Of a DNA stretch of 64,000 nucleotides, positions 3,093 through 18,888 are shown one piece after another. The position numbers and the translations under genes were made by a program. The stretch comes from an uncultured bacterium (GTDB lineage Bacteria; Patescibacteriota; Minisyncoccia; Moranbacterales; UBA2206), in contig CAIMLT010000003.1 in NCBI GenBank assembly GCA_903842445.1, forward strand, positions 5,696 to 69,695, given 5' to 3'. Below the pieces are notes generated by a model that made no database searches, had not been told where the DNA came from, and saw only the letters and a program-made list of their open reading frames with translations. Position 1 is the first letter of the stretch; every line of letters begins with the position of its first letter.

Positions 3093-3096
3093 TTTT

Positions 3097-4095: not shown

Positions 4096-4130
4096 AAAAT
4101 CAAATATTAACTTATTATAAGCTTATTAAA

Positions 4131-4418: not shown

Positions 4419-4419
4419 A

Positions 4420-4797
4420 TTATTTTTTCCATAACCCATGCATATTGCAACAGGCTCTTATCGTGAAATGTTCAGCTTCCAGAAAAAATTCAGCCACAGG
4501 ATCTGTTCCTGGCTCTAGAAATTTTCTGTATGCTCTATGCTCAGTAACAACCTCAATCCATTCAATATAATGTTCGGATTCCATTGGATGAAGAACACTC
4601 CCAACTTGAACAATCAATCCCAAATCGGTCTTTTCCACGATCGGCAAGTGCTTTTCTTGACCTTCTTCAATTTCTGTTTTTTCGACTTCCAACTTCATCA
4701 GTTGTCCACAACAAACTAGCTCTCCTCCACCGAAGCGAACAACTTCAACCATATTTCCACAAATATTACATTCATAGATTTGATTAAGCTCCGTCAT
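4420..4797 (-). CDS. dfx: desulfoferrodoxin (2Fe superoxide reductase)
   Basis: N-terminal desulforedoxin motif CNICGNMVEV...LVCCGQ plus a C-terminal neelaredoxin-type centre (HPMESEHYIEWIE ... CNMHGLW). Confidence 0.8.
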   Translation of the reverse strand: MTELNQIYECNICGNMVEVVRFGGGELVCCGQLMKLEVEKTEIEEGQEKHLPIVEKTDLGLIVQVGSVLHPMESEHYIEWIEVVTEHRAYRKFLEPGTDPVAEFFLEAEHFTIRACCNMHGLWKK

Positions 4798-4830
4798 ATG
4801 TTTTTTAAAATTAGTTAAAAATTAGCTTAT

Positions 4831-6090
4831 TCAGTGAACTGCGCAACTAATACAAGGATCGTAAGCTCGAATAAAAGCACGCAACTTTTTTTCTTTTTCT
4901 TTATCTTTTAATTTTAAAATTTGTGGGATGTATTCAGCAATGTCATCTTCGAGGTTCGAGAGAAATTGGGCAGTTGGAGTAATGATATTCACATTCTTCA
5001 CATAACCTTTGGCATCAACATCAACATGATAATAAAGTGTTCCGCGCGGCGCTTCAATGGCCGCAACACCTACTCCTTCGCAAACTTTATATTCTTTAGT
5101 TATAACCTCATTCAAATCGCTGTTCAAAAGCTCCAGCATAATCCGCTTTGATTCTTCAATTGATTGGATAACTTCCACCATCTGCGCCAAAATATTATGA
5201 AAAGGATTGTAATCTGGAAATGTCCAACCCAAACTTCTCAGATAGTTTGATGCATTATCTCTTAACTTCGCCCTATTATTGTTTATCCTGGCGATTGCTC
5301 CAACCATATAGCTCTGACCATTATGTTTGACGCGCTTAATCACTTCCTTCTGTTTTTGTAATTCTAAAAAGTTATTTTCAAATTTTTTAACTGAAATATG
5401 CAATCCCAAGTTAGAAATAACATCACCGTCATAAATCGCATATTCACCATTCTTACCCAAGGAAATATATTCGGTTACGCGAGAAAATTCCGGGATTTTT
5501 ATTCCTCTAAAAAACTCTCCCAAACTAAGTGCTATTTGCAGAATATCTTCAGAATCCCCAACCAGCTTTTTTAAAGCCTCTCTATCTGGCGCTTTTTTGA
5601 ATCCACCCACTTCATTGGTTAGCGGATGCACGACTCTACCGCCAACTATTTTCACAATTTCCATTCCATATTCGCGGATTTTAATCGCCATTTTTGCCTC
5701 TGCGGAATACTTGCTTATTAGCTCAATGTCATTATTCATATCTAAGAAATCAGCCAGCGACAAAAAGAAAAGATGCAGAGCATGCGAATGAATAAATTGA
5801 GCGTATTCCAAAAGCGTTCGCAATTTTTTAGTTTCGTATGTCACAGAAACCCCCATAGCGTTTTCGAGAGCTTTTATTGAAGTCAGGTTGTGAACTACCG
5901 GACAAATCCCACAAATCCGCTGAGCAATAAGTGGCATATCTTGATATTCTCGCCCAATAAGCACGCCTTCAATTAAACGAACTCCTTCCTGCACTTGAAA
6001 TTTAGCCGACTTAACGTCACCGTTGAGCACGCTCGCCATAAAGCCAGTATGACCCTCTATTTTTGCAATGTGGTTTATTTTTATCTTCAT
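4831..6090 (-). CDS. [NiFe]-hydrogenase large subunit, group 3
   Basis: 419 aa with N-terminal Ni-binding RICGICPVVH. It ends exactly at DPCISCAVH followed by the stop, so there is no C-terminal extension. Confidence 0.9.
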   Translation of the reverse strand: MKIKINHIAKIEGHTGFMASVLNGDVKSAKFQVQEGVRLIEGVLIGREYQDMPLIAQRICGICPVVHNLTSIKALENAMGVSVTYETKKLRTLLEYAQFIHSHALHLFFLSLADFLDMNNDIELISKYSAEAKMAIKIREYGMEIVKIVGGRVVHPLTNEVGGFKKAPDREALKKLVGDSEDILQIALSLGEFFRGIKIPEFSRVTEYISLGKNGEYAIYDGDVISNLGLHISVKKFENNFLELQKQKEVIKRVKHNGQSYMVGAIARINNNRAKLRDNASNYLRSLGWTFPDYNPFHNILAQMVEVIQSIEESKRIMLELLNSDLNEVITKEYKVCEGVGVAAIEAPRGTLYYHVDVDAKGYVKNVNIITPTAQFLSNLEDDIAEYIPQILKLKDKEKEKKLRAFIRAYDPCISCAVH

Positions 6091-6122
6091 AATTTAATTA
6101 TACTTTATTTTTTACAATAAGC

Positions 6123-7052
6123 CTACTCAAACTTGCAAACAGCTTTCAACGCGCTTAAATCATCCGGAGAAAGCTGAGGATTTTCCATGTTTTGATCAGA
6201 GAGTAGATAATACATAATCGATTGCGGATCCTCGACATGTCCAACGCCTAAAGCATGTCCCAACTCATGCACAATCGTCAGGCGCAAATCGGCAAGTTGC
6301 TTAAACTGATACAAGCTGATCCCCTTGCCGTCATAGAGCCCTTTTTCAAATTCCCGTGAGCCGCCATATTTATTTTTGTATGTCGAAACATTAGCGTTAT
6401 ATTCATTCACAACTTTTTGCTCTTTTGAAACTAAAGCATTGGTTTTTCCAGCCAGACCATTCACTTCTGTCCGCTCTTTTTCGAGTTTATCGTATAATTC
6501 ATTAATTGTCTTCTTCTCTTTCGCTAGATCATTATACTCATCCTGCGATCCGCTATTTTTATTCCAATCCGCGACAGCTTTATTATAGTCCCTCAATTTT
6601 TTTTCATAAGCTACCACGTTGGCGTCATATTTTGCCATCTTCTTTTCATAGATTCCGGCTAAGTCCTCATATTGATTAGCAATTTTTTGGTGTGATATTT
6701 CCAACTGGTCTAAATTACTCGCCAATTTATCCGCCGCGTTCGAGGCAACCTGCCTCTCATCAAAAATCAAATTCAGCTTAAACTGAGCATCTGGCTTATA
6801 TTCAAATAAATTCTTCCCCGACTGCGTTTCCCAAATTTTTTCCGCCTCTCGAATCTCTGCCAAAAAATTATTCGCACTCAAATCAAACCTTGGATCAACT
6901 ATTCCAACAGCATATTGAAACGGCTTGGCACACGGCAAACCAATCCCGGTAAATTCCGAAACGGTTTCTCGCACGGAAGTTTTGTTTTGCAAAATTATCC
7001 CCCAAGCAGAAAAGAGAATTATAATAATGAAATATTGAAAAAATTTTTTCAT
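6123..7052 (-). CDS. secreted matrixin-like (M10) zinc metalloprotease with a coiled-coil region
   Basis: N-terminal signal/TM segment MKKFFQYFIIIILFSAWGIIL. HELGHALGVGH zinc site with Met-turn SIMYY near the C-terminus. Its ATG overlaps the stop of the upstream small-subunit gene (ATGA). Confidence 0.7.
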   Translation of the reverse strand: MKKFFQYFIIIILFSAWGIILQNKTSVRETVSEFTGIGLPCAKPFQYAVGIVDPRFDLSANNFLAEIREAEKIWETQSGKNLFEYKPDAQFKLNLIFDERQVASNAADKLASNLDQLEISHQKIANQYEDLAGIYEKKMAKYDANVVAYEKKLRDYNKAVADWNKNSGSQDEYNDLAKEKKTINELYDKLEKERTEVNGLAGKTNALVSKEQKVVNEYNANVSTYKNKYGGSREFEKGLYDGKGISLYQFKQLADLRLTIVHELGHALGVGHVEDPQSIMYYLLSDQNMENPQLSPDDLSALKAVCKFE

Positions 7053-7942
7053 CTTTTTTTTCTTTTGTCTTTTTTTTCTCTTTCTTCCAAATCATCTCTG
7101 AGGCCAAAAATCTCCGTCATATTTTGAAACTGTTCATCACTCATCATATTTTTTAGCATCGCACGCATAGCGGTTACATTTCCAGTTTCCCGAAGTCCGC
7201 GACAACCTTGGCACTGCGCCCTAGAACTTGGGCAAACTGCATTGCACCCACCCAGAATCATCGGACCAAAACAAGGTTTCTTGTCTAACAAAAGACATCG
7301 ATTACCTGCTTTTTTGCATTCCACACAAACCGGCTGATCGGGCAAGGTGGGAATTTCACCTTTGAGTAATTTCGGGATACACTTCAAAAACTCTTCACCA
7401 TTGATCGGACAACCCGGAAAAACAAAATCAACTTTTACAAAATTATTAATCTCACGAATTTCCGGGTTAGTAATCCCTTGTAAATATTTATAGACATGTT
7501 TTATCGTGCTCACTCCTTCGTGATAATTTTTCATCTCGGGGATTCCACCCATCGCTGCGCAATTTCCAAGCGCCACAAGCAGTTTCGCCCTTTTTCTGGC
7601 AGAAAGGAGTGTTTTTTCATTTTCCTTGGTTACCGGATTTCCCTCAACCAAAACTAAATCCAACATTCCGCCATCATCCTCCTCATCTTCAATCAAGCGA
7701 AAATCCACCAATTCAACTTGCTCTGTAAATTCCAAAAAGCGCACGCCAAGATCGAGAAGTACAAATTGGCAACCCTCGCAAGAAGTGAGGCTCACAATCG
7801 CCACACGCGGTTTTCCAGCCTCGACTTTCTTATTGGCTATTTTTGCCACTACGACTTTTTTTGTCTTAACTATTTTTTTAGCTTTAACTGCTTTAGCTCT
7901 CGTAGGTATTTTATTTTTTTCTTCGATTACTTTTATTTTCAT
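7049..7942 (-). CDS. [NiFe]-hydrogenase small subunit, group 3, with a lysine-rich N-terminal extension
   Basis: AIVSLTSCEGCQ proximal-cluster motif and a C-terminal Cys-rich region for additional FeS clusters (CVECKK...C...CNAVCP...CQGC). Roughly 45 K/A/V-rich residues precede the conserved core. Confidence 0.85.
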   Translation of the reverse strand: MKIKVIEEKNKIPTRAKAVKAKKIVKTKKVVVAKIANKKVEAGKPRVAIVSLTSCEGCQFVLLDLGVRFLEFTEQVELVDFRLIEDEEDDGGMLDLVLVEGNPVTKENEKTLLSARKRAKLLVALGNCAAMGGIPEMKNYHEGVSTIKHVYKYLQGITNPEIREINNFVKVDFVFPGCPINGEEFLKCIPKLLKGEIPTLPDQPVCVECKKAGNRCLLLDKKPCFGPMILGGCNAVCPSSRAQCQGCRGLRETGNVTAMRAMLKNMMSDEQFQNMTEIFGLRDDLEEREKKDKRKKR

Positions 7943-8032
7943 AAGAATAGTTTTATTTGTTTTATTTCTCTTTGTATTCTAACAGATTTAACCTGATTTT
8001 AAAAATCCGGCAAATTACTCTATACTTAGCTT

Positions 8033-9193
8033 ATGGAGTTTGAATTTCCCCTAAAACAAAATAAAGTTATTTTAGCGCTTGGTGGAGAATCCGCTGGCAA
8101 TTTTTCGGTTTGCAATAAGGGTAAAGTTTATTTTTCCAAAGATTTTGGCGATTTACTGGTTGAAAGTAACTTAGCAAATTATAAAAAGGCGGTCTTGAAT
8201 TATCTGAAAAAACATAAGTTTAAGCCTGAAATAATCCTAATTGATCTCCATCCGCTTTTTCACACAACCCTTTGGGGCAAAATGCTCACTAAACAATATA
8301 AAGCCGAATGCATCCAAGTCCAACATCACCACGCCCATATTTTTTCCTCTATCGGCGACAGAATATTGCAATCTGCAATCTACCAACTACCTGATAAATT
8401 CTACGCTCTAGCCATGGACGGAACGGGACTTGGAACAGACGGGAAGATTTGGGGAGGAGAGGTTTTTAAAATTAGTTGTCATTCCCGCGCAGGCGGGAAT
8501 CCAGTCTCATATAATTCAGTTTATAAACTAAATTTACCCTTACACGAGAATACAATAAACTATACTGTCGAAAGAATTGGGCATTTGGAAAATCAAATTT
8601 TGGTTGGTGGAGATTTAGCAATTCAAGAACCAGCGAGAATGTTAATTGGAATTCTAAGTAAATTCCTGAACAAATCTGAAATTTATAATCTAACTAAAAA
8701 ATATTATTCCAAAAACGAATTTGAGGTAATTTATAGCCAACTTAGACAAAATTTCAATTGCCTCGAAACTTCCAGCACCGGAAGAATTTTAGATGCCGTA
8801 TCGCTGCTCCTAGGCTTTTGCGGAAACGAGAGAAAATATAAACATGAACCGATTGATCTACTGGAAAAAAATTCCACTAAACCCTATGAACTTAAGCCAA
8901 TTATAGAAAATAATGTTTTATTAACTACGCCGCTGTTTAAATATTTGATTAAAAATCTGCATAAAGATAAAAAAAGACTCGCCGCCATGGCACAGCTTTA
9001 TCTTGCGCAGGGACTACTTAAGATAATTAAATTAGCTGGTAATTTTGACATTTTTATTTCCGGCGGAATTGCCAAAAATAAAATTATTTCTAAATGCTTA
9101 GAATCCAAAGGCGCCTACGCCAGTAAAATCATCCCTCGCGGCGACGCCGGACTTTCTTTCGGACAATTGGTTTATTATTTATTGAATTATTAA
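8033..9193 (+). CDS. hypF: HypF-like carbamoyltransferase, Kae1-like C-terminal domain only (no acylphosphatase, Zn-finger or YrdC domains)
   Basis: 386 aa with LALGGESAGNF, VQHHHAHIFS (the HypF QHHxAH motif as I recall it), AMDGTGLGTDGKIWGGE and RGDAGLSFGQ. It converges on hypE with overlapping stops. Confidence 0.55.
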   Translation: MEFEFPLKQNKVILALGGESAGNFSVCNKGKVYFSKDFGDLLVESNLANYKKAVLNYLKKHKFKPEIILIDLHPLFHTTLWGKMLTKQYKAECIQVQHHHAHIFSSIGDRILQSAIYQLPDKFYALAMDGTGLGTDGKIWGGEVFKISCHSRAGGNPVSYNSVYKLNLPLHENTINYTVERIGHLENQILVGGDLAIQEPARMLIGILSKFLNKSEIYNLTKKYYSKNEFEVIYSQLRQNFNCLETSSTGRILDAVSLLLGFCGNERKYKHEPIDLLEKNSTKPYELKPIIENNVLLTTPLFKYLIKNLHKDKKRLAAMAQLYLAQGLLKIIKLAGNFDIFISGGIAKNKIISKCLESKGAYASKIIPRGDAGLSFGQLVYYLLNY

Positions 9194-10248
9194 CAAATCC
9201 TCGGAATCAACTTCCCTCTCGGCACCTCAATTTTCTTAAGACTCCCAATATTTGTAGCTAAATATAAGCCTTTTTTCTCATTTTCTCGATTGGAAAACTT
9301 TTTCACAAACCCAATAACCTTAGCTTCTGGGTTGAATTTTTGCAAAATTTTAATAACTTTATCGGCATTTTCTTTGGCAACCGTCGCCACAAACCGACCT
9401 TCGGACGGAAAAGAGAACTTATCGATTCCCAAAAGATTTGAAAGCGCAACTGTTTCTTTGGCAAACGGTAATTTGCTTTCTTCAAGAATAATGCGGACTT
9501 TGGATTTTTCGGAAATTTCATTGAGCACCGCAGCTACTCCGCCGCGCGTCGGATCCTTGCAAGCTGTTAGATATTTCGCAACGCTTTGAATTTCTTTGGT
9601 GAGCGGCTGGCAATCACTTTTGATTTTGGTTTTATAATTAAATCTTTTGGAAAGAAGTGCGACGGCGTGCTCGCCAAGATTTCCGGAAGTAATGACAACA
9701 TCACCCGGTTTTGCACCATTGTTTGAAATAATATTTTCCGCAATTCCCACGCCAGAAGTCGTAATTTCAATTTTGTCGAGTTTGCCTTTTTCCGTAACTT
9801 TCGTGTCCCCGGTAACAATCGGCACGCCAGTAATTTTAGAAATCTGCCCAATCGATTGCATAATTTTTTTGAGATCCGCGATTGGAAAACCTTCTTCCAT
9901 CACCACGCTCAAAGAAATCCCGATTGGCACAGCGCCCATCACCGAAAGATCATTTATCGTCCCACAAATCGCGATTTTCCCGATGTCCCCACCCGGAAAA
10001 AAAATCGGATCAACAATAAAAGCATCTGTCGTAAAAACCAATTTCGATTTTCCCCCTCTCCTTAATAAGCCTGCCTGTCCGGTAGGCAGGGAGAGGGCTG
10101 GGGTGAGGTCAAAAACCGCCCCATCATCATTGGTATTTTTCCATTTTTTAGACCTCGGAAAACTTTTTCTAATTTCCGCAATCAACTCTTCGGATTTCCC
10201 GCCACCACCGCCATCTTCTAGCTCCACAAATTCTTTTTTATTATTCAT
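9190..10248 (-). CDS. hypE: hydrogenase maturation protein HypE (carbamoyl dehydratase)
   Basis: 352 aa ending in the HypE hallmark PRIC, with VDPIFFPGGDIGKIAICGTINDL and VTGDTKV. An in-frame insertion of about 10 aa coincides with the palindromic element at 10068-10092. Confidence 0.85.
   Translation of the reverse strand: MNNKKEFVELEDGGGGGKSEELIAEIRKSFPRSKKWKNTNDDGAVFDLTPALSLPTGQAGLLRRGGKSKLVFTTDAFIVDPIFFPGGDIGKIAICGTINDLSVMGAVPIGISLSVVMEEGFPIADLKKIMQSIGQISKITGVPIVTGDTKVTEKGKLDKIEITTSGVGIAENIISNNGAKPGDVVITSGNLGEHAVALLSKRFNYKTKIKSDCQPLTKEIQSVAKYLTACKDPTRGGVAAVLNEISEKSKVRIILEESKLPFAKETVALSNLLGIDKFSFPSEGRFVATVAKENADKVIKILQKFNPEAKVIGFVKKFSNRENEKKGLYLATNIGSLKKIEVPRGKLIPRIC
10068..10092. repeat. 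24-nt palindromic element (stem cctgcct / aggcagg), copy 1, in frame inside hypE
   Basis: agcctgcctgtccggtaggcaggga matches the copy at 12971-12994 at 24 of 25 nt in the same orientation. It encodes ALSLPTGQAGLL. Confidence 0.6.
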
Positions 10249-10275
10249 AATTTGTATTTTTATACTTCCTGTATT

Positions 10276-11322
10276 TTACACCTTAATGAAAAATGTAGGA
10301 AATATTTTTTTGAGTTGTTTTTCAATCTCAAATCCCTCGCAATGCCGCAAAACTCCAAGATACGATTGCAAACTCTTACTGAAAGATTCTACAAAAATCA
10401 AATCTTCCCGTAATAATTTGTGTTTCTGAGAATTTTTTTTGAATATTCTTCTTTTCGTTTTCGTTCGCAAAATCCGGTAATCAGAAAAGTTGACCATTCC
10501 TAGAAAATCAATGCCACTTGCCAGAGTTTTCAAAAAAACCTTATTTGGATGCAATTCCAGCTTCAGTTCATTGGATAAAAACTTTTCAATTTTTGGAATC
10601 TGATTTTCAAGTAAGCTTTTATCTTCCGACAAAAACACAAAATCATCGGCGTAGCGGAGATAATATTTGGCTTTCAGTTTATGTTTTGCAAATTGATCAA
10701 ATTTATTCATATAAATGTTGACGAATAATTGTGAAGTTAGGTTTCCAAGTGGCAAACCTGTATAAATTTTATTTTTGGTGGTAAAACTTTTTATAATATT
10801 TTCCAAAAGATTAATAATATTTTCATCTGGAATATATTCAGCTAGAATTTCCAACAAAATCTGATGATCCATATTAGCAAAAAACTTTTTAATGTCGCAT
10901 TTCAAAATCCAGCAAGTTTTGATATTATTTTTACTGACAATATGGGCATATTCGCGGAATTTATCAATGGCTTTATGTGTGCCTTTTTTGTTTCTGCAAG
11001 AATAGGAATCGGCAATGAAAGTTTTGTCAAAAAAAGGATAGAGAATTCTATATATGGCATGGTGCAAAAGTCGATCGCGCACGCTGGCCTTGTGAATGTC
11101 CCTGGGTTTTGGATCATTGATTTTGAAAGCTTGATAACCGCCGTGTTCATAGGTATGATTGAAAAGATCGCAGTGCAGTGAAAAAATATTATCCATCAGT
11201 TTCATTGAAAATTCTTGCACATCTTTTCTGTTTTTCTTGCCTTTTTCGAATTCTTGCCAAGCCAGAAGTAAGTTTTCTAAACAAATAATATTCTCAAAAT
11301 TATGACTCAATTGAATTTTCAT
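10276..11322 (-). CDS. diversity-generating retroelement reverse transcriptase
   Basis: 348-aa RT with catalytic YADD (LRYADDFVFL) and the DGR-type domain-4 motif GLPLGNLTSQLFVNIYM (SQ in place of the group II QG). There is no maturase/endonuclease domain. Avd, TR and VR lie alongside. Confidence 0.85.
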   Translation of the reverse strand: MKIQLSHNFENIICLENLLLAWQEFEKGKKNRKDVQEFSMKLMDNIFSLHCDLFNHTYEHGGYQAFKINDPKPRDIHKASVRDRLLHHAIYRILYPFFDKTFIADSYSCRNKKGTHKAIDKFREYAHIVSKNNIKTCWILKCDIKKFFANMDHQILLEILAEYIPDENIINLLENIIKSFTTKNKIYTGLPLGNLTSQLFVNIYMNKFDQFAKHKLKAKYYLRYADDFVFLSEDKSLLENQIPKIEKFLSNELKLELHPNKVFLKTLASGIDFLGMVNFSDYRILRTKTKRRIFKKNSQKHKLLREDLIFVESFSKSLQSYLGVLRHCEGFEIEKQLKKIFPTFFIKV

Positions 11323-11323
11323 A

Positions 11324-11713
11324 ATGATACTTCTACTCTTAAAGCCCCCCCCCAGAGGAGTGCCTGCTGTAATTATAAAAGAAAAAGAAACTTATACCTA
11401 TTGGCTAGCTTTGCATCGCAATTTCCCGAAAACTGAACGCTATGGACTTGGAAGAAGAATCGACCAGCTATTCCTGGAAATTCTTGAACTCAGTTTTACT
11501 GCTGCATATTTACCGGCTGATCCAAAAATAATCCTATTGGGAAAAATAATTTCTCGTCTTGATGTGCTTAAATTTTTCTCACAACTCGCTTGGGAAAATA
11601 AATTAATTCCTTCTGAAAAATATCTGGAACTTTCCCAAAAACTGGAAGAAATCGGTCGAATGTTTGGCGGCTGGAGAAAAGGACTTTTGGAAAAGAAAAC
11701 TCCTGCCAAATAA
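11324..11713 (+). CDS. avd: DGR accessory variability determinant (Avd-like four-helix-bundle protein)
   Basis: 129 aa. YTYWLALHRNFPKTERYGLGRR and the C-terminal EIGRMFGGWRKGLLEK resemble the Avd / 23S-rRNA-IVS protein family as I recall the Bordetella phage Avd ending. It is oriented opposite to the RT; the start codon is uncertain because a C9 tract lies at codons 8-10. Confidence 0.75.
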   Translation: MILLLLKPPPRGVPAVIIKEKETYTYWLALHRNFPKTERYGLGRRIDQLFLEILELSFTAAYLPADPKIILLGKIISRLDVLKFFSQLAWENKLIPSEKYLELSQKLEEIGRMFGGWRKGLLEKKTPAK

Positions 11714-11720
11714 GCAGGAG
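11700..11720. other. 7-bp hairpin (ctcctgc...gcaggag) overlapping the avd stop and flanking the 3' end of TR
   Basis: Perfect inverted repeat with a 7-nt loop lying between avd and TR. Confidence 0.35.
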
Positions 11721-11736
11721 AAAAACAGTAGTTTCA

Positions 11737-11845
11737 GAAGAACACCTGGTTGTCATCATTCCACCTATTCGTATCATCGACAGAGTTGGCATTGACGTTC
11801 CAACCATCGTCGTTCCAGTTACAATTCACCGCACGAAGCACACCG
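11737..11845 (-). repeat. DGR template repeat (TR)
   Basis: Near-identical to 12211-12319. In TR-sense (minus strand) it carries A at all 20 positions where VR differs, and it translates in the VR frame to NCNWNDDGWNVNANSVDDTNRWNDDN. Confidence 0.85.
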
Positions 11846-12106
11846 GCATTCTCGAGCAAAGAGCCATCCATTCCACTATCCTTCGAATGCTCTCCGGATT
11901 GTATCGCATTTGGGACATTAAAAGTCCGCCAGCTTTTTGCACCAATTCCTGTATTTTTTTGAAAAGATTATTTTCCATACTATTATGCAAGGCTTGCCCG
12001 GCACAACTCTCGCGAAAAATATCTTAAAGCCATGACACAAAAGCCGTAACCGTTGCGTATCACATGAGTTCATAAAAAGTATAGCAAAAAAATTTGAAAT
12101 AAAAAA

Positions 12107-12152
12107 TGACCCTTTGAATTTTTTTCGATTTTCGAGAAAATTCAAAGGGTCA
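12107..12152 (-). terminator. Rho-independent terminator of the DGR target gene (16-bp perfect stem followed by a T-run on the minus strand)
   Basis: tgaccctttgaatttt / aaaattcaaagggtca with a 14-nt loop. On the minus strand it is followed by ttttttatttc. Confidence 0.55.
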
Positions 12153-12170
12153 AAGTGACAAAGAATCAAA

Positions 12171-12184
12171 GGGACAAGTGTCCC
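12171..12184 (-). other. GC-rich hairpin (gggac aagt gtccc) immediately downstream of the VR and the target stop
   Basis: 5-6-bp GC stem with a 4-nt loop about 10 nt 3' of the stop. This is reminiscent of the cruciform/hairpin needed for DGR homing. Confidence 0.4.
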
Positions 12185-12189
12185 AGAGC

Positions 12190-12867
12190 TTAAGCGGCAA
12201 CAGGAACTCGGAAGAACACCTGGCGGACAGCACGCCACCCATCCGTATCATCGACAGAGCGGGCACGGACGTCCCAACCATCGCCGCACCAGCCACAAGG
12301 CACCGCACGAAGCACACCGTTTTTGTCCCTGATGTAGAAGATGTTGGCATAACCGTTGTTCAAAAGAACGCCGGCTTCACCATTCCGCTGCTTCTCCATC
12401 TGAGAGAACATTTCCGATAAGGTAGTTTCGGCTTTTGCTTCACCACCTATCTCGGCGATGATCAGATCGTCAACCGAGGCTTTTTTCAGTCTGGCACAGC
12501 GAAGTTCCTGCTCACCGATAGGAGTCTCAATTTTGCCATCTTCGCCAAGAAACCACTTCGTGAAATTATCGCCAAGGTAACTGATTTTGACATTAGCCTC
12601 TTTGCTCGTATCAACAATAAACTTATCACGAGCGATAAAATTCACAATTCTTGCTGGAATAGTGACGGTGTTGATCATTTCGAGCAGAATATTGATTATG
12701 CCCTCTGACCAACATTTCTCCTTTCGGAGAAATTTTTTGAATTCCGCAAACCACACTTGGCATGCCTCACCAGATAGTTTTTCCGCCAAATCGCAGATTG
12801 CTCCCAACATTTCTCTTGGAAGATCCACAATCTTACGAACTACTTCACCGAGCATGTCTTTTTTCAT
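12190..12867 (-). CDS. DGR target protein (variable C-terminal C-type-lectin-like region); no signal peptide
   Basis: 225 aa. The C-terminal VR-encoded segment GVLRAVPCGWCGDGWDVRARSVDDTDGWRAVRQVFF corresponds to TR-encoded GVLRAVNCNWNDDGWNVNANSVDDTNRWNDDNQVFF. Confidence 0.8.
   Translation of the reverse strand: MKKDMLGEVVRKIVDLPREMLGAICDLAEKLSGEACQVWFAEFKKFLRKEKCWSEGIINILLEMINTVTIPARIVNFIARDKFIVDTSKEANVKISYLGDNFTKWFLGEDGKIETPIGEQELRCARLKKASVDDLIIAEIGGEAKAETTLSEMFSQMEKQRNGEAGVLLNNGYANIFYIRDKNGVLRAVPCGWCGDGWDVRARSVDDTDGWRAVRQVFFRVPVAA
12211..12319 (-). repeat. DGR variable repeat (VR) at the 3' end of the target gene
   Basis: 20 substitutions relative to TR, all at TR-adenine positions. The 13-bp fully conserved 3' block (ccaggtgttcttc on the minus strand) fits an IMH-like end. 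Confidence 0.85.
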
Positions 12868-12970
12868 GGTCAGTCTCCTTTTTTCTTAAAAAATATTTGC
12901 TTCCAGCTAACCGACATGGTTTTGCCACAGCAGAAAAGATTCATTTTGAAACTAGATCCCCGTATTCACG

Positions 12971-12994
12971 AGCCTGCCTGCCGGTAGGCAGGGA
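12971..12994. repeat. 24-nt palindromic element, copy 2, about 105 nt upstream of the DGR target gene
   Basis: agcctgcctgccggtaggcaggga, a direct copy of the element inside hypE. Confidence 0.6.
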
Positions 12995-13165
12995 TGACAA
13001 TTTATAAAAACCCTTTCTGCTGTGGCAAATCACAAATATTAAAGAACTATCACTTAATAAAAAAGCTTCGCATATTTTCAGTTATATGTCAAACTAAATT
13101 GCCTTTTTTTGGCTTATGCAAAGGTTTTTATCGAAATTTACCAAGAAAAATTACAATTTTTGTCC

Positions 13166-14206
13166 TCAATTATCATATCTATACTCCACACTACAACTCC
13201 CCTCCCGTGAAACCATGCACGCACCTTGTGGATTATCCGGATTACACGCTTTCCCAAAAAGCGGACAATCTTTTGACGAAATAATCCCTTGCAAAACTTC
13301 GCCACATCGACACGCGCTCGGCTTGGTTTTTGTTTCTTTTTTAATTTTTGAAATCAAATCCCGATAAACAAATTCCGCATCATACTCACGATATTTTTTT
13401 CTAATTTTGAGTCCTGAATTTTTTATTTTTCCAAATCCGCGCCATGTGGCATCACTAATTTCAAAAACTTCCGCAATCATTTTTCTGGCTTTTGGATTGC
13501 CATCTTTCTTGACCAATCGCGAATAAGCATTTTCAACTTTTTTTTCGCCGGAAATAATTTGTGTAAGCAATTTATCAATCGCGATGAGCACATCTTCGCC
13601 GGTAAATCCGGCAATCACTTGCGGAATTTTAAATTGCGCGTAAATTTCTGTTCCGATAATCGCGCTAACATGCCCTGGGTTAATAAACCCATCAACTCTG
13701 ATTTTTTTATTTTGAAGCAGCGCTTCCATTGCCGGCGGAAAAAGTTTATGCGCAGAATAAACGATCAGCCCATTTCTAATCGCCCAAGCTGTCATCCCGG
13801 TCGTTGTTTCAAATCCCAGACCAAAAAAAACCAAATTCGGTTTTTCTTTTTTCATTTCGACCCCTTCAGTTATATCATAAACAATATTCACATCCGCGCC
13901 ATTTCTTCTGGCTTCTTCCAAGCTCATTAAATTTCCCGGAACTTGGATTGCGTCGCCATAAACCGCCACCGGAATTCCATGAAGCGCGAGACCAACCATA
14001 ACATCAATATCAGATTGATCAGTCACACAAACCGGACAACCCGGCCCAGAAACTAAAGTTATATTTTTTGGCAAAATATTTTTTATGCCATTTTCCGCAA
14101 TCGCCTCAGCATGCGTTCCGCAAAGCTCCATAAACCACAAAGGTCGCCCAATTTTTTCAGCTTTTTCGTGAATACTTTTTAAAAAATTTTTTAACTCACT
14201 GTTCAT
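13166..14206 (-). CDS. hypD: hydrogenase maturation protein HypD
   Basis: 346 aa with MELCGTHAE, GPGCPVCVT and a C-terminal CPLFGKACNP...GACMVSREGSC motif. Confidence 0.9.
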   Translation of the reverse strand: MNSELKNFLKSIHEKAEKIGRPLWFMELCGTHAEAIAENGIKNILPKNITLVSGPGCPVCVTDQSDIDVMVGLALHGIPVAVYGDAIQVPGNLMSLEEARRNGADVNIVYDITEGVEMKKEKPNLVFFGLGFETTTGMTAWAIRNGLIVYSAHKLFPPAMEALLQNKKIRVDGFINPGHVSAIIGTEIYAQFKIPQVIAGFTGEDVLIAIDKLLTQIISGEKKVENAYSRLVKKDGNPKARKMIAEVFEISDATWRGFGKIKNSGLKIRKKYREYDAEFVYRDLISKIKKETKTKPSACRCGEVLQGIISSKDCPLFGKACNPDNPQGACMVSREGSCSVEYRYDN

Positions 14207-14225
14207 TATTATTTTTTATCATCAC

Positions 14226-14339
14226 GACTTAAGCGTTCGTCCGGAAAAAGTCCGCACGTTCGTTTTTTTTGGCACCTTAAGGCTTTTGATAAAGCAAGAG
14301 AAGAAAAGTCAAAGTAATAAAATTACGCTTTAGTAATTT
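14226..14339. repeat. about 115-bp conserved intergenic element, copy 1 (between hypC and hypD)
   Basis: Roughly 80% identical to 19403-19520. The core is ttcgtccggaaaaagtccgcacRttcg followed by ggcttttgRtaaagcaagaRagaaaagYcaaag. Confidence 0.6.
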
Positions 14340-14345
14340 CAAAAA

Positions 14346-14564
14346 TCACACGCCAGCCTTAAGCTCTGTTTTCAAATACCCTTTCATTTCACTAGCATAA
14401 TCCGCATCCATCTTCTCAATCGCAAAACCCGCGTGCACCATCACATACTCACCAGCTCTCACTGAAACTAAAGAAATATTGATTTCTTTCTGGATCCCAT
14501 CAAAATCAACTGTTGCCAGTTGATTTTTGATAGAAATAATTTTTCCAGGAATAGCAAGGCACAT
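14346..14564 (-). CDS. hypC: hydrogenase maturation protein HypC
   Basis: 72 aa starting with the canonical MCLAIPGKII. Confidence 0.85.
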   Translation of the reverse strand: MCLAIPGKIISIKNQLATVDFDGIQKEINISLVSVRAGEYVMVHAGFAIEKMDADYASEMKGYLKTELKAGV

Positions 14565-14568
14565 ATTA

Positions 14569-15624
14569 TTATAATCTTGTATTATTTTTTATTTTCCCCG
14601 TAACTATTTTCCCCGCGTCTCTCACTAGTCTTGCTACCTCTCGATCAGTTAACACATAATCTAAAAACTCGCTTTTTTGGGCTTTTTTACTAATTTTTGA
14701 AGAAATAAAAAAAGTTCGGATATTTCTTGGATCAATTTTTTCCCGCTTGGCATCCGTAGTTTTAACATTTTTTATTATCTCATCTTCTCTGTTTTTATCT
14801 TCGTCTTTTAAGTTTATAATTCTTTCAAAACCTAAAGCAAAAAATAATTTTTCTAGATTTTGCTCTGGGGTTATGTTTTTTATTTGTTCTTTTATTTTAT
14901 CTAAAATTCCAAAGTCAAAAACTGCGACAGAAAGCTTTTTCAGATCAGATAGATCGCTCGCGATTTTCTCAAGATTATTTTGATCTGTGAGCGCCGCCGT
15001 AGGACACGCTCTGACACACTCACCGCAAAAACTGCAATCTAAAACTTTTTCATATGGCGTCCCCACAATCACATCTCCCGCGCGATTATTAAAGCCAAAC
15101 TTCTTCTCTGGACAAATGCTTATACACCTTCGACATTCCACGCAAAATTCCGAATTTCGAGAAACACACGGATTATCATTTTCCACTACAACGCGCGACC
15201 AATTGTCATGCACTAAATTCAATTCTTCTTTGCTCGTCATCTCGCCACGTCTCGGCACAAAATGAAAGTTTTCAATCCTATATTCTTCCGCCAATTTCTG
15301 GAGTTCACACATCCGATTTTTCTTGCAAGTCACGCATTTCCCCGCGTGATCCGCCCAAAGAAGCTCCAGATTAATCCGCCGAGCCTTTTGGACTTTTTCG
15401 CTTTCGATGAACACTTCCAAACCTTCGCAAACTTTTGTCGTGCAAGAAGTCACTAACTTTTCCGTCTTATTTGTTTCCACCAAGCAGAGCCGACATGCTC
15501 CTCCACGTGAAAGTCCCTCAAATGAACACAGCGTCGCAACCGGAATATTTTTCCGCCGACAAACATCCAGAATAGTTTCTCCGTTTTTTACTGTATATTT
15601 TTTATTATTGATTTTAATTTGCAT
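14569..15624 (-). CDS. HoxU / NuoG-N-terminal-like iron-sulfur protein (2Fe-2S plus two 4Fe-4S ferredoxin motifs)
   Basis: N-terminal 2Fe-2S cysteines (CSFEGLSRGGACRLC), then CVECRRCISICP and CSFCGECVRACP, followed by a C-terminal extension of about 120 aa. Confidence 0.8.
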   Translation of the reverse strand: MQIKINNKKYTVKNGETILDVCRRKNIPVATLCSFEGLSRGGACRLCLVETNKTEKLVTSCTTKVCEGLEVFIESEKVQKARRINLELLWADHAGKCVTCKKNRMCELQKLAEEYRIENFHFVPRRGEMTSKEELNLVHDNWSRVVVENDNPCVSRNSEFCVECRRCISICPEKKFGFNNRAGDVIVGTPYEKVLDCSFCGECVRACPTAALTDQNNLEKIASDLSDLKKLSVAVFDFGILDKIKEQIKNITPEQNLEKLFFALGFERIINLKDEDKNREDEIIKNVKTTDAKREKIDPRNIRTFFISSKISKKAQKSEFLDYVLTDREVARLVRDAGKIVTGKIKNNTRL

Positions 15625-16135
15625 GTTCTATAAATTTTATAACCTTATTTAATAAACCACTTACTGGCTCGTCAGATTTAAGAAATATTTTACTTTCCGG
15701 CATATGTGCATAATCACATCTCATCTTTTCATACTTTCTCTGTCTATCATGATGACATCTATTTCTTTCTCTGTTTTCAAATCGAATCCGCCTTTCTTTC
15801 TCATCAATTTCAAGAACTATCGTATAAATACTAACCCCATACTTCACTTTCCATGTCTCAAAAATCCTTCCCTCTGGTTCAAAGTTGAAAGTAGATTCTA
15901 TAATTACATCAATTCCGCGATTAATATTTTCTTCAGCAAGATCCATGATTGCCTTAACTGAAGGATACCCTAATTTTATACTATCCTCTAGTGTCGACAT
16001 CCTCATCGAATTATACATTGATTCCTTGACTGAATCCTTATGTAAACAAAAAATGCCAATCTTCTCAGATAACTTATCGGCCAAAGTAGTTTTTCCAACC
16101 CCAGGAACTCCGCAAATTATAATAAGTTTACTCAT
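15614..16135 (-). CDS. P-loop kinase / NTPase (AAA_33-like) of unknown function
   Basis: 173 aa with the Walker A motif ICGVPGVGKTTLADKL. It overlaps the hoxU-like start by 11 nt and lacks the HypB GTPase motifs. Confidence 0.55.
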   Translation of the reverse strand: MSKLIIICGVPGVGKTTLADKLSEKIGIFCLHKDSVKESMYNSMRMSTLEDSIKLGYPSVKAIMDLAEENINRGIDVIIESTFNFEPEGRIFETWKVKYGVSIYTIVLEIDEKERRIRFENRERNRCHHDRQRKYEKMRCDYAHMPESKIFLKSDEPVSGLLNKVIKFIEHAN

Positions 16136-16142
16136 AAGTTGA

Positions 16143-17375
16143 TCAGTCTTTTAATATTTCCAATTTATCCACTGCGTCGCGCGTTGCCACCGCCGCAAAT
16201 TTTCCCAAGGGGCAAAAAGTTGTGCTTTCTAGTGTCCACAAAATATCTTGCATTGCTTCCTTATCTCTTTGCGAAATTTCGCCATCTGCTAAACGTTCGA
16301 TAATCTCATTGAGTCGAAAAGTTCCTTCGCGACAAGGAATACATTTTCCACAAGATTCGCGCCGAAAAAATCCAGTCCAGGATAATAGCAAATCATAGAT
16401 ATTTATTGATTTATCTACAACTAAAATTGTCCCTGACCCAAGGGGAATATTATTATTTTTTCCATAGTCTAGTTTTTCATCTAATTCTTTTTCAGTTGCC
16501 AATCTTCCACTTGCTCCACCGACTTGCGCAAACCAAAAATCCTTCCCTCTCGGAAGTCCTCTGCCTAAAGTTTCTATCGCTTCACGAATTGTAATTCCAG
16601 TTGGCGCTTCAATAACGCCTTTATTTTTAACCGCACCACCAAGAATAAAAATTTTTGTGCCCGGACTATTTTTTGATCCGATCGCCGCATATTTTTTTCC
16701 CCCATTTTGAATTATGAAAGGAATATTGGCCACCGTTTCTGCATTATTTATCACTGTTGGCTTTCCAAAAAGTCCCTTTTCAGTTGGATAGGGTGGACGA
16801 ATTTTCGGCTCGCCACGATTACCCTCAATAGAATTTATGAGTGCCGTTTCTTCTCCGCAAATATAAGCACCGGCGCCAGAAAAAATTTCGATTTCTAGGA
16901 AATATTTTGATCCTAATATTTTTTCTCCCAGAAATTTATTCTTCTGCGCTTCCAAAATTGCATTTTCCAAAATATCTTTTTGCGTTTCATAATTTCCATT
17001 AATATAGACATAGGCTTTTTTTGCTCCAATAGTCAAAGCAGCTATAATTATTCCTTCGAGAAGTAAGTGCGGATTATTTTCCACAATCATTCGGTCTTTA
17101 TACGTTCCAGGTTCTGATTCATCAAAATTGCAAATAAAATATTTTTCTTTGATAGAATTTTTTGCCACTACCTCCCATTTCTGTCCAGTTGGAAAACCAG
17201 CCCCGCCGCGACCACAAAGACTTGATGATTTAATTTCCCCTAGGGCTTTTTGCTGATTCATTTTTTCAATGAATTTTTTTAGAGCGGAGTAACCACCCAC
17301 ACCCAAATAATCCTCAATTTTAAGTGGATTAATCTTACCCCAATAATTGGTCAGAATTTTTATATCTTTCATCAT
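16143..17375 (-). CDS. HoxF / NuoF-like NAD(P)H-binding flavoprotein subunit
   Basis: 410 aa with GRGGAGFPTGQKWE, FDESEPGTYKDR, GAGAYICGEETALI and C-terminal 4Fe-4S cysteines (CGKCIPCREG). Confidence 0.85.
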   Translation of the reverse strand: MMKDIKILTNYWGKINPLKIEDYLGVGGYSALKKFIEKMNQQKALGEIKSSSLCGRGGAGFPTGQKWEVVAKNSIKEKYFICNFDESEPGTYKDRMIVENNPHLLLEGIIIAALTIGAKKAYVYINGNYETQKDILENAILEAQKNKFLGEKILGSKYFLEIEIFSGAGAYICGEETALINSIEGNRGEPKIRPPYPTEKGLFGKPTVINNAETVANIPFIIQNGGKKYAAIGSKNSPGTKIFILGGAVKNKGVIEAPTGITIREAIETLGRGLPRGKDFWFAQVGGASGRLATEKELDEKLDYGKNNNIPLGSGTILVVDKSINIYDLLLSWTGFFRRESCGKCIPCREGTFRLNEIIERLADGEISQRDKEAMQDILWTLESTTFCPLGKFAAVATRDAVDKLEILKD

Positions 17376-18863
17376 TTATGTTCCGCTATATTTAACGGGC
17401 ATTGAATATTTACCAGATATTTCGTTCGTTAAGTAATAAAATATATTATCCTTATCTTCTTTTACAACAATATCACCAACAGATTCACGCCCAAGCATGC
17501 TTCTCCATCTTCCACTTTCTAAGTCAATAAAAATTTTCTTATCGCTATAGAAAATATACTTTTCATCAATTGGATGAAAGTCGCTTTGCTTATTTAATGG
17601 ATATTTATTTATCACTCTAAATACTGGATTACTTTTATTGTAAGGATCTTGAGAGATTATAAATACATCATTCATGCTATATTTATCACGATTTGGGTTT
17701 TTGATTCTTAAACTTTCCAAATCAATTCCCACCTCATTTGCATATACTAAACAATATATTTTTTTATTAGAATAAGTAACATTGCTACAATCATTTAATT
17801 TTGGGAAATTTTCTATGTTAGGTTCTATGCTGTTATCAGATACGAACTCCGCCACATTGAGAAGCACATATATCTTTCTATTTTTATCATAATAAAGCTT
17901 GTCTTTTTCATCATCCCAAGAGAATCCCTCTGGAAGAATTTCCTTACCACCATAGCTAAATAGCTTCTTCCTAAATGGAGCTTTTCTGTACACCTCTCTA
18001 TATTTTTTTGATTCAACATCAAATAAAATAAGCACCACATCTTCCGAAGATTCATCGTCATATTGACAGGTCAAATATTTTTCACTAACAGACCATTCGC
18101 ATTTTTCAGGACAAATATGGGAACTAGACTCATGCAACTTCTTTTTCGCCACACAGACATCTAAAATTGGCGTTAAATCGCTCGTCTTATATATATATTT
18201 CTCGAAATTAGGCTTGGTTTTCTTGAAATCAACATCAGCTAAGAAATACGATCCCTTGGGAGAAATAAACTCAAAAGCTAAAAAATTATGCAATTCTGAA
18301 TTATTTCTATCAAAAGTCCTGAGAACATTCCTCTCTGAACCGTCTATTTTACTCACCACAATTGAAGATTTGCTATTGCTAGACTCAACTCCGTTGTCAT
18401 ATTCAATATAATATTCTAAGTATATAAATTTAGCATCTGATTTGATAACATCGTTAAACTCGTACTTCTGATTATATTCTATTTTATATTCCTTCTCTTG
18501 ATTATACCCTGTCGATCCACTTAAGAGTTGTATCCCTAGAGCAACTATGGCCAAAGATGCAGAGCCAATCAGAAATCTTTTTTTAAATTTGTAAAAAAAA
18601 TCTGCTCTATATTTTAAGATTATAAAAATCAATGTAAGCTCAATGAGTAAAAATGAGTAGTAAAATAAAAAAAATGGTTCAAATATACCTCCGGCAACGC
18701 CAAACATATAAATAATTGTTCCGGCACCAAGAAGAGACATCTCGCCACCAAACACATCTCCTATCTCAAGAAGTAGCCCTGTTAGATAAACCACAGAAGA
18801 AAAATCAACAAACAGACAAATGTACACAAGCACGGAAAAGAAAAATATTTTTATATTTTTCAT
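17376..18863 (-). CDS. hypothetical membrane protein (four N-terminal TM helices plus a large soluble domain) within the hox operon
   Basis: 495-aa ORF with hydrophobic N-terminal segments. Its stop abuts the hoxF-like ATG with zero gap. Confidence 0.55.
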   Translation of the reverse strand: MKNIKIFFFSVLVYICLFVDFSSVVYLTGLLLEIGDVFGGEMSLLGAGTIIYMFGVAGGIFEPFFLFYYSFLLIELTLIFIILKYRADFFYKFKKRFLIGSASLAIVALGIQLLSGSTGYNQEKEYKIEYNQKYEFNDVIKSDAKFIYLEYYIEYDNGVESSNSKSSIVVSKIDGSERNVLRTFDRNNSELHNFLAFEFISPKGSYFLADVDFKKTKPNFEKYIYKTSDLTPILDVCVAKKKLHESSSHICPEKCEWSVSEKYLTCQYDDESSEDVVLILFDVESKKYREVYRKAPFRKKLFSYGGKEILPEGFSWDDEKDKLYYDKNRKIYVLLNVAEFVSDNSIEPNIENFPKLNDCSNVTYSNKKIYCLVYANEVGIDLESLRIKNPNRDKYSMNDVFIISQDPYNKSNPVFRVINKYPLNKQSDFHPIDEKYIFYSDKKIFIDLESGRWRSMLGRESVGDIVVKEDKDNIFYYLTNEISGKYSMPVKYSGT

Positions 18864-18888
18864 ATTTTTTATTGTTTAATAATTATTT

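Follow-up and report, generated by a model that had tools for sequence, protein, structure and literature searches.

A chromosomal diversity-generating retroelement of CPR-typical architecture with a proposed separate leader-template RNA

With a probability that we put at about 0.9, the locus described here is a chromosomal diversity-generating retroelement (DGR) of the architecture typical of CPR bacteria, B3, in which a target gene ending in the variable repeat (VR) is followed by the template repeat (TR), an inverted avd gene and a reverse transcriptase (RT) gene, and in which, as we propose, a leader and the TR form a separate RNA. The defining DGR features that are testable from sequence are all present in the window, i.e., the whole 64-kb stretch of DNA that was analysed. 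The TR, avd, and RT lie in the order and orientation (-, +, -; Table 1) of the B3 core, which accounts for 90% of CPR DGRs (Wu et al., 2018, PMC5758913). About 35 genome loci repeat this order, inverted avd included, as do all 45 metagenome loci that were informative, and TR/VR pairs with mismatches restricted or biased to adenine were found in relatives at about 36 loci from genomes and about 40 from metagenomes. The published B3 layout and this recurrence in dozens of loci make the element ordinary as a kind. According to their record titles, the relatives are mostly Patescibacteria metagenome-assembled genomes; about 30 of the titles give Candidatus Saccharibacteria, and a few give other taxa. 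Together with the B3 architecture, this supports the CPR-like genome that had been suggested in an earlier, sequence-only reading of this DNA.

Table 1. Features of the retroelement and of its flanks, in order of position in the window.
Feature	Position	Strand	Details
hypF-C	8033-9193	+	
hypE	9190-10248	-	
DGR-type reverse transcriptase (RT)	10276-11322	-	348 aa; LGNLTSQLF and YADD
avd	11324-11713	+	129 aa; strand opposite to RT, TR, and VR
Hairpin CTCCTGC-TTATTTG-GCAGGAG followed by TTTTCTTTTC	11690-11720	-	16 nt past the TR; from terminator scan
Template repeat (TR)	11737-11845	-	109 bp; 27 adenines on the minus strand
Structured non-coding leader	11848-12073	-	~225 nt, seven helices, directly 5' of the TR
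Sub-threshold match to RF03080 (RT-9 RNA)	11941-12060	-	inside the leader: first hairpin and following single-stranded stretch
Extended -10 box TGCTATACT	12078-12086	-	family consensus TGnTATA[CA]T
Intrinsic terminator of target gene	12101-12152	-	perfect 16-bp stem 12107-12122/12137-12152, then TTTTTT
G+C-rich hairpin GGGAC-ACTT-GTCCC	12171-12184	-	6 nt past the target stop codon
Target (variable-protein) gene	12190-12867	-	225 aa; VR forms the C-terminal 36 codons
Variable repeat (VR)	12211-12319	-	109 bp; 20 substituted positions within 12224-12300
A-poor 3' end of VR, CCAGGTGTTCTTC	12211-12223	-	13 nt identical to TR 11737-11749; VR and TR diverge beyond
hypD	13166-14206	-	
hypC	14346-14564	-	

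Repeats, genes, and genomic neighborhood

TR and VR are identical at 89 of 109 aligned nt, with no gap, and form the largest direct repeat that a repeat search detected in the region. All 20 mismatches fall on positions at which the minus (coding) strand of the TR carries A, i.e., T on the plus strand, where the changes from TR to VR read as 11 T>C, 7 T>G, and 2 T>A. The VR thus differs from the TR at 20 of the 27 minus-strand adenines and at none of the 82 non-A positions; the chance that 20 out of 20 mismatches hit 27 A positions is P = 2.5e-16 in a hypergeometric test. In the VR frame, each of the 27 adenines sits at the first or second position of its codon, and nine of the codons are the Asn codons AAC/AAT. 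The TR translates into GVLRAV-NCNWNDDGWNVNANSVDDTNRWNDDN-QVFF and the VR into GVLRAV-PCGWCGDGWDVRARSVDDTDGWRAVR-QVFF. The sequence-only reading had reported the same repeat length, identities, mismatches, and fraction of changed adenines, all of which our alignment reproduces; the two peptides that it gave are exact, the AAC/AAT codons that it noticed are those counted here, and the VR does lie at the C-terminus of the 225-aa open reading frame that it had named. Remote VRs elsewhere in the window were considered and rejected, since a pattern with N at each TR adenine matched only the TR and this single VR (0 matches expected by chance).

The A-poor end of the VR may be a boundary of the IMH type. 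The sequences that flank the VR (...TCTCGCAATTC) and the TR (...TCTCGAAACT) in relatives differ in a fixed manner, which recalls the IMH/IMH* pair. The G+C-rich hairpin downstream of the target stop codon would be a candidate target-site hairpin: relatives carry a hairpin of other sequence at the same place, and a hairpin downstream of the VR is mentioned for the Bordetella phage element BPP-1 (PMC3240598). The terminator of the target gene likewise keeps its position among aligned relatives, with a stem of varying sequence.

Variable proteins of DGRs display their variable residues on a C-type lectin or Ig fold. In the target protein, three helices make up the N-terminal segment, and the C-terminal domain (residues ~60-222) has the VR at its end. 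Sequence searches of Pfam, NCBIfam, PHROGs, PADLOC, and PDB gave no match to it, FGE-sulfatase and DUF1566 included. The predicted model is weakly C-type-lectin-like, with Foldseek matches to PDB that are not significant; the C-terminal domain would probably be a small, C-type-lectin-like ligand-binding domain. The target belongs to a large uncharacterised family (669 homologs), and this family displays a conserved scaffold with hypervariable positions exactly at the TR adenines. By eye, no hydrophobic stretch is seen at the N-terminus of the protein.

The RT matches PF00078 in Pfam (E 1.8e-26) and phrog_1423 (345 bits), and its best PDB match is chain 8ub7_A with an E value of 2.4e-35, compared to 1e-16 for group II intron RTs. 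In the alignment with this chain, LGNLTSQLF stands opposite IGSLTSQLF and YADD opposite YMDD; these stretches fit the [LIV]GxxxSQ of motif 4 and the catalytic YxDD of the DGR clade. The PDB match table names 8ub7_A only as 'Reverse transcriptase'; we take it to be the RT of the BPP-1 DGR. The contig index has no exact match to the RT, and Rfam scans detected neither an intron nor a retron RNA family.

Avd is optional among DGRs and defines architecture B. The start codon of avd lies 1 bp from that of the RT gene; an alternative JGI call shortens the product to 117 aa, beginning 12 codons further in at about 11360. Avd scores above the cut-off of the PF22296 bAvd model (53.5 bits, cut-off 40), matches phrog_3206 'Avd protein of DGR' (E 2.9e-19), and stays under the NCBIfam cut-off with NF033474 DivGenRetAVD (69.1 bits, cut-off 80). 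The PF22296 and phrog_3206 matches bear out the Avd-like gene of the sequence-only reading. The profile with which that reading had proposed to check it, PF05635, is absent at E <= 0.01, and it is the related PF22296 that was matched. The same reading had described a 348-aa DGR-type RT with GNLTSQ and YADD, and would have given up this assignment for an RT clustering with retron or group II RTs and lacking SQ on alignment; both motifs are there, and SQ aligns to 8ub7_A. The inverted orientation of avd had received no mention.

As had been proposed, the element is embedded in a hydrogenase maturation locus, with hypF-C and hypE on one side and hypD and hypC on the other. Palindromes of ~25 nt that flank the cassette were rejected as insertion boundaries because one of them lies ~160 nt inside hypE, and a syntenic relative (L081) has its DGR at another position without them.

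A structured RNA upstream of the template repeat

Target gene and TR are 345 nt apart, and this interval contains the target-gene terminator, an extended -10 box, and a structured RNA of ~225 nt, the leader. Of 31 related loci, 28 carry the extended -10 box at this position and the remaining three carry near variants; the box is the putative promoter of the TR RNA. The structure of the leader was derived as an RNAalifold consensus of related loci. Across the 50 consensus pairs, 97.0% of cells are paired, compared to 41-51% with slid partners; 41 of the 50 pairs show compensatory changes, and none of 500 shuffles matches any of the pairing measures. The most widely kept part is the 13-bp helix 5 domain. 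A sequence profile of the leader finds one match per DGR locus, always between target gene and TR, and a single match in the window (12072-11850). The leader is present in 42 of 45 metagenome loci that were selected by their RT, and 35 of these 42 have a different target family. The leader travels with RT, avd, and TR whatever the target family is.

No terminator separates the leader from the TR. Downstream of the TR, the hairpin at the avd end resembles an intrinsic terminator when read on the TR strand, and overlaps the stop codon of the oppositely oriented avd. It is kept in 31 loci, in which its stems covary (CTCCC/GGGAG, CTTCT/AGAAG, CTCTC/GAGAG) and AGTTT is invariant.

Rfam searches at gathering thresholds returned nothing relevant for the whole window and 13 related loci. 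Below threshold, part of the leader resembles RT-9 (RF03080), a motif defined from its occurrence beside RT genes (Weinberg et al., 2017, PMC5737381). With 31.2 bits, compared to a gathering score of 46.1 (E 0.004-0.04), the entire RT-9 model aligns to the first leader hairpin (loop GGUUACGGCU) and the CAUGGnUUUAAGAUA stretch behind it, and one relative (L008) reaches 33.5 bits at the equivalent place. The RF03080 gathering threshold is reached by 0 of 13 related loci, and no RT-9 match is listed for 16 other relatives scanned. RT-9 comprises 92 nt and one hairpin, whereas the leader has ~225 nt and seven helices, with the helix 5 domain falling outside RT-9. RT-10, the Rfam family of the BPP-1 spacer, gave no match at E <= 1.

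Taken together, the minus strand could work as follows. The target gene would end in the VR and be closed by its own terminator, and the extended -10 promoter would start a separate non-coding RNA of about 380-400 nt, made up of the ~225-nt leader, the 109-nt TR, and the terminator hairpin overlapping the end of avd. RT and Avd would bind this leader-TR RNA, copy the TR into cDNA, and misincorporate opposite adenines. The cDNA would then replace the VR by way of the common A-poor 3' repeat end and probably the hairpin downstream of the VR, and as many as 27 nucleotides, spread over 17 codons of the target domain, would be randomised anew. Observed in this scheme are the parts and their order, the A-only mismatches, and a conserved, covarying leader that is linked to RT, avd, and TR; for the start and end of the transcript, the binding of RT-Avd to the leader, the priming site, and a ligand of the target we rely on inference.

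Several ways in which the RNA might set up priming were examined. A duplex bracketing the TR, formed by 25 nt upstream and 30 nt downstream, was rejected, with a mean RNAduplex z of 0.06 relative to shuffles. Self-priming by pairing of the terminator U-run with the invariant GAAAC after the TR was likewise discarded, as it appeared in only 1 of 31 MFE folds. No covarying helix between the leader and the TR 3' flank was found; the matches of 4-6 nt link invariant to invariant sequence and are uninformative. As no pairing that could set up priming was found between the leader and the TR 3' flank, the role of the leader is putative. Tentatively, and at somewhat short of even odds, we propose that in CPR (B3) DGRs the RNA scaffold that recruits RT-Avd and primes synthesis lies 5' of the template and not 3' of it as in the Bordetella phage, and that the DGR RNA is an autonomous transcript of ~400 nt with its own extended -10 promoter, seven-helix leader, TR, and terminator. 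If this holds, RT-9-like motifs would be pieces of the leader, which would give this orphan RNA motif a likely function. In the literature searched, which included PMC5758913 and PMC8144416 and had the main CPR DGR paper (Paul et al., 2017) outside its scope, the leader, the promoter box, and the post-TR terminator are undescribed.

Activity of the element and alternative explanations

The intact parts and the clean A-only pattern suggest present-day mutagenic retrohoming. A different reading is that this is a real DGR that has fallen silent, so that the VR records past retrohoming and the cassette is heading to decay. Three independent assemblies from different samples have an identical VR despite 1-2 SNPs elsewhere, the 90% cluster of the target contains one other sequence, which differs by G142V outside the VR and has the same VR, and the N-at-TR-adenine pattern found 0 VR variants in JGI metagenome contigs. 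Decay is also seen in relatives: the RTs of two loci (L002 and L069) contain in-frame stops, the tblastn matches of the syntenic L081 skip RT residues 171-257 and its open reading frame from the aligned start is about 270 aa, and many target homologs are accompanied by leader fragments only, with no RT nearby. However, RT, avd, TR, leader, promoter box, and both terminators are all intact in the element described here, consensus assemblies hide minority variants, and the zero mismatches at 82 non-A positions argue that the last retrohoming event was recent. On balance, we consider a silent element unlikely.

Rather less probable still is that the structured RNA does not belong to the DGR RNA at all and is instead either the 3' UTR or a regulatory element of the target gene, or else a small RNA in its own right. 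It has no demonstrable base pairing with the TR or its flanks, and the only database family that it resembles is RT-9, itself an orphan motif. On the other hand, the leader goes with RT, avd, and TR and not with the target gene in the RT-selected loci, mostly beside unrelated targets, a terminator parts it from the target gene, the conserved -10 box precedes it, and it abuts the TR with no terminator in between. These features favor a leader that is part of the DGR RNA.

The repeat pair might finally be an ordinary duplication with random divergence, situated beside an unrelated retron, group II, or defence RT. NCBI indeed annotates the protein as 'retron-type reverse transcriptase', and its best NCBIfam RT model is the group II RT/maturase with 146.6 bits. 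The cut-off of this model is 300 bits, however, and the RT stays below the cut-offs of all NCBIfam RT models, among them retron St85 (56 vs 235) and Drt3a (67 vs 200), and reaches only 53 bits with the PADLOC retron model RT_II-A, whereas its best structural relative is 8ub7_A and an avd gene is adjacent. Furthermore, the A bias recurs in dozens of relatives. The sequence-only reading had argued that random divergence would not place every substitution on one base, a point to which the P value given above lends full weight. These results refute the duplication, and we give it practically no credence.

Comparison with known retroelements

About 31,000 DGRs have been catalogued, B3 is the norm in CPR bacteria, and as a DGR the element adds little to them. 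The CPR B3 DGRs (PMC5758913) and DGR clade 2 of Roux et al. (2021, PMC8144416) share its order and orientation; they are likewise chromosomal, with A-only mismatches and a target without a recognisable sequence domain. We see no essential difference between the CPR B3 DGRs and the element described here. Compared to the variable proteins of C-type-lectin fold (Mtd, TvpA, FGE-like), the 225-aa target is very small and its structural similarity to them is weak.

With BPP-1 (mtd-avd-TR-brt), the element has in common the adenine-specific transfer from TR to VR, homologous RT and Avd proteins, a variable protein with the VR at its C-terminus, and a hairpin past the VR. BPP-1 is phage-borne, whereas the element studied here is cellular, and the avd of BPP-1 lies upstream of the TR on the same strand, whereas avd is inverted here and located downstream of the TR. 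The essential structured RNA of BPP-1 consists of the 140-nt spacer downstream of the TR and 20 nt upstream of it (bioRxiv 10.1101/2023.10.23.563531). In the element described here, no such same-strand structured spacer, the source of the priming adenosine in an RNA of the BPP-1 type, lies between TR and RT: the TR is followed only by the terminator hairpin and then by antisense avd, and, unlike in BPP-1, a large conserved structured RNA is found upstream of the TR. A BPP-1-like downstream spacer may lie 3' of the TR terminator, where conservation is inseparable from the coding constraint on antisense avd.

The current mechanistic model of how DGRs reverse-transcribe their template comes from a single phage element, which has its essential RNA downstream of the TR. 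If the proposed arrangement is correct, the CPR architecture would be a permutation of that of the only DGR ribonucleoprotein of known mechanism, and its priming geometry might differ. A clade with structured RNA on the other side of the TR would be a direct test of the generality of this model, and this clean, fully intact DGR in a small-genome bacterium, with a 225-aa target from a large uncharacterised family, is a compact candidate for learning what CPR cells diversify.

Adenine-specific repeats and the proteins encoded beside them

Ungapped alignment of the two 109-nt repeats of the diversity-generating retroelement (DGR), the template repeat (TR) and the variable repeat (VR), gave 89 identities, and all 20 differences fall where the TR copy has T on the plus strand, i.e., A on the minus strand, the coding strand of the ORF that holds the VR. 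The sequence-only reading had described just such a pair, with 20 of 27 TR adenines substituted; this observation is confirmed, and the TR and VR peptide strings it listed proved exact on translation. The substituted adenines are replaced by G (11), C (7) or T (2), whereas none of the 82 non-adenine positions is mismatched. The probability that 20 random substitutions over 109 positions would all land on the 27 adenines is 2.5e-16. In the VR frame, each of the 27 falls at codon position 1 or 2, and a pattern with N at every TR adenine matched only the TR and the VR when the 64-kb window was searched.

Searches of the target sequence against Pfam, NCBIfam, PHROG, PADLOC and PDB returned no matches. 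Its 669 homologs are mostly hypothetical proteins of Patescibacteria, which when aligned share the invariant scaffold VxVxWxGxGWxVxAxSVxxPxxWxDGxQVFSRNS; the positions marked x are hypervariable and correspond to TR adenine codons. The C-terminus of one homolog, P0014, reads VDCNWNDDGWNVNADSVDNPNDWNDGN, close to the unmutated TR-encoded sequence, and would represent either a barely diversified VR or a miscalled TR.

Among all solved structures, the reverse transcriptase (RT) best matches chain 8ub7_A (E 2.4e-35), followed by group II intron RTs at about 1e-16. The search table labels this chain just 'Reverse transcriptase'; it is probably the RT of the Bordetella phage DGR, in keeping with numbering that agrees with the cryo-EM preprint. 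The alignment places LGNLTSQLF on IGSLTSQLF and YADD on YMDD. NCBIfam models for group II, retron and Drt enzymes all scored far under their cut-offs, and the PADLOC retron model reached just 53 bits. In view of the DGR evidence, the label 'retron-type reverse transcriptase' in the public NCBI/JGI record is misleading. The neighboring gene, previously called Avd-like, is identified as avd by its Pfam and PHROG matches, with NF033474 remaining below cut-off (69 bits, cut-off 80); RT, TR and VR all lie on the other strand. The start codons of RT and avd stand head to head 1 bp apart (11322-11324), which leaves no intergenic room for a promoter of either gene; in relatives, the gap ranges from overlap to about 75 nt. 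One possibility is that the RT gene is transcribed by read-through from the TR RNA.

Features of the DGR cassette and its non-coding elements
Feature	Position	Strand	Description
RT	10276-11322	-	348 aa, PF00078
avd	11324-11713	+	PF22296 above cut-off; phrog_3206 'Avd protein of DGR'
TR-strand hairpin/intrinsic terminator	11690-11720	-	terminator-scan score; 16 nt after TR
TR	11737-11845	-	
Leader	11848-12073	-	~225 nt; runs directly into TR
Extended -10 box TGnTATA[CA]T	12078-12086	-	28/31 loci, near variants in other three
Strong terminator	12107-12152 plus T6	-	after small hairpin
Small hairpin	12171-12184	-	just past target stop codon; position constant, sequence variable in relatives
Target	12190-12867	-	225 aa, VR-bearing
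VR	12211-12319	-	

Related loci and genomic setting

With the target alignment as query, a scan limited to a single genome of each species yielded 80 loci, by record title mostly Patescibacteria MAGs, with about 30 titled Candidatus Saccharibacteria and a few titled as other taxa. The gene order target (+), avd (-), RT (+) recurs in about 35 of the 80, and in about 36 the VR is followed at a distance of 440-480 nt (730 nt in a single case) by a partner with mismatches nearly all at TR adenines (e.g., 21/21, 22/22, 23/23). Metagenome contigs queried with the RT alignment gave 80 further loci. Avd is head-to-head with RT in all 45 that had sufficient upstream sequence, about 40 loci show a TR at the expected place and, 360-550 nt upstream of it, a VR mismatched only at adenines, and a homolog of the window's target family occurs in only 7 of the 45. 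This layout has already been published as architecture B3, which accounts for 90% of CPR DGRs (Wu et al., PMC5758913), and a DGR clade found in Patescibacteria alone has also been described (Roux et al., 2021, PMC8144416). The window element is thus typical of an established class. Taken together, the DGR interpretation is supported, with the element belonging to the B3 class of CPR DGRs.

The cassette is flanked by hypD and hypE, in agreement with the hydrogenase maturation locus proposed earlier. Of the genome loci, L081 has the closest DGR (Avd 85%, RT 79% over the first 170 residues); its region 1-12925 is syntenic with 7-20 kb of the window (7088-20432) at ~54-88% protein identity, which argues that the DGR is an old resident of the hyp locus. 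The DGR slot differs: L081 has the order FeS, 434-aa ORF, DGR, hypC, hypD, hypE, with the DGR upstream of hypCDE, and the window has FeS, hypC, hypD, DGR, hypE and no counterpart of the 434-aa ORF. Either the DGR or hypCD has shifted locally. The tblastn matches to the L081 RT omit residues 171-257, the YADD stretch in the window RT, and the ORF that begins at the aligned start is ~270 aa long, which suggests that the L081 RT has decayed. HypF (8033-9193) has just 386 aa (425 aa in L081), and its matches are confined to the two Kae1-like C-terminal domains; domain matches to acylphosphatase, zinc-finger and YrdC parts are absent from this ORF.

A ~25-nt palindromic repeat, AGCCTGCCTG(T)CCGGTAGGCAGGGA, has exactly two copies in the 64-kb window (10056-10100 and 12971-12995), one on each side of the cassette. 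The left copy, with arms extended by CCCTCTCC/GGAGAGGG, lies within the hypE ORF and encodes ...LSLPTGQAGLL...; the N-terminal ~64 residues of the window HypE have no aligned counterpart in solved HypE structures. The right copy falls between genes and is enclosed by a larger 21-nt inverted repeat (12921-12941 with 13009-13029). Just 5 of 81 related loci contain the core motif, and syntenic L081 lacks it. A second palindrome, ATTCCCGCGCAGGCGGGAAT at 8483-8502, lies within the hypF-C ORF, encodes HSRAGGNP and may represent a further case of a palindrome inserted in frame into a coding gene. Elsewhere, a LOOT RNA (82 bits) and tmRNA genes lie a few kb from related DGR cassettes (L053 4238-4368, L004 10168-10547, L035 8845-9243), a nearness that is probably coincidental.

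A structured leader RNA upstream of the template repeat

The target stop codon and the TR are 345 nt apart in the window and 325-377 nt apart in 29 of 31 loci. The leader occupying most of this interval has a consensus fold of seven helices (RNAalifold). Standard pairs fill 97.0% of the cells of its 50 pairs, compared with 41-51% after shifting the partners by 1-3 columns; compensatory double changes occur in 41 pairs, and 500 shuffles failed to reach a single one of the five measures. The hairpin after the TR has covarying stems of 7-10 bp and an invariant AGUUUU, and overlaps the avd stop codon on the opposite strand. In this clade, the DGR RNA would be a separate ~400-nt transcript composed of leader, TR and terminator.

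A sequence profile of the leader matched once per DGR locus, always between the target gene and the TR and on their strand, including 20 loci outside its building set; the window has a single match. The leader is found in 42 of the 45 RT-selected metagenome loci, mostly as the 3' half, where the long helix 5 lies, and 35 of these 42 have unrelated targets. It therefore belongs to the RT/avd/TR core and not to the target gene. Among database families it resembles only Rfam RT-9, over the full model length but below threshold (31.2 bits, threshold 46.1; 33.5 bits at the equivalent place in the related locus L008). RT-9 belongs to a set of 19 motifs located beside RT genes, some of which, according to the authors, might function in DGRs; they identified RT-10 as the spacer of the phage DGR BPP-1 (PMC5737381). 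At gathering scores, no Rfam family was found in the whole 64 kb, and no tRNA, rRNA or riboswitch was detected.

Many target-family genes without RT or avd nearby retain leader fragments downstream, partial leader matches occur at L003, L016, L055, L062 and L078, and the RT has an in-frame stop in L002 and L069. The leader fragments lacking RT and avd, together with the RT stops, look like a series of decaying DGRs.

Activity and comparison with the Bordetella phage system

Three assemblies from different samples carry an identical VR despite differing elsewhere at one or two positions (12443; 11955 with 11972), and a search of metagenome contigs for VR variants gave no hits, although consensus contigs hide minority alleles. 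A DGR that is now silent would account for this uniformity. However, every part of the window DGR is intact, and the perfect match outside the adenines argues that the last retrohoming was recent relative to point mutation; present silence is regarded as less likely than not.

By homology with the Bordetella phage, RT and Avd would reverse-transcribe the TR RNA, misincorporating opposite adenines, and the mutagenised cDNA would replace the VR. In the phage, cDNA synthesis depends on 20 nt upstream of the TR together with a downstream structured spacer of 140 nt, which wraps the RT, sits on Avd and provides the priming adenosine (bioRxiv 10.1101/2023.10.23.563531). In contrast, the large structured RNA of the window lies upstream of the TR, which is followed only by a hairpin with a U-run and then by antisense avd. 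We infer from this comparison that the leader may take the scaffold role of the phage spacer. A priming duplex was not found among the pairings sought: there is no covarying helix between the TR 3' flank and the leader, a TR-bracketing duplex is no better than chance, and the invariant GAAAC after the TR pairs with the terminator U-run in just 1 of 31 folds. A downstream spacer is possibly concealed in antisense avd, masked by coding constraint. The leader RNA is the one feature that merits specialist attention, and it poses a testable question on how general the phage-derived priming model is.
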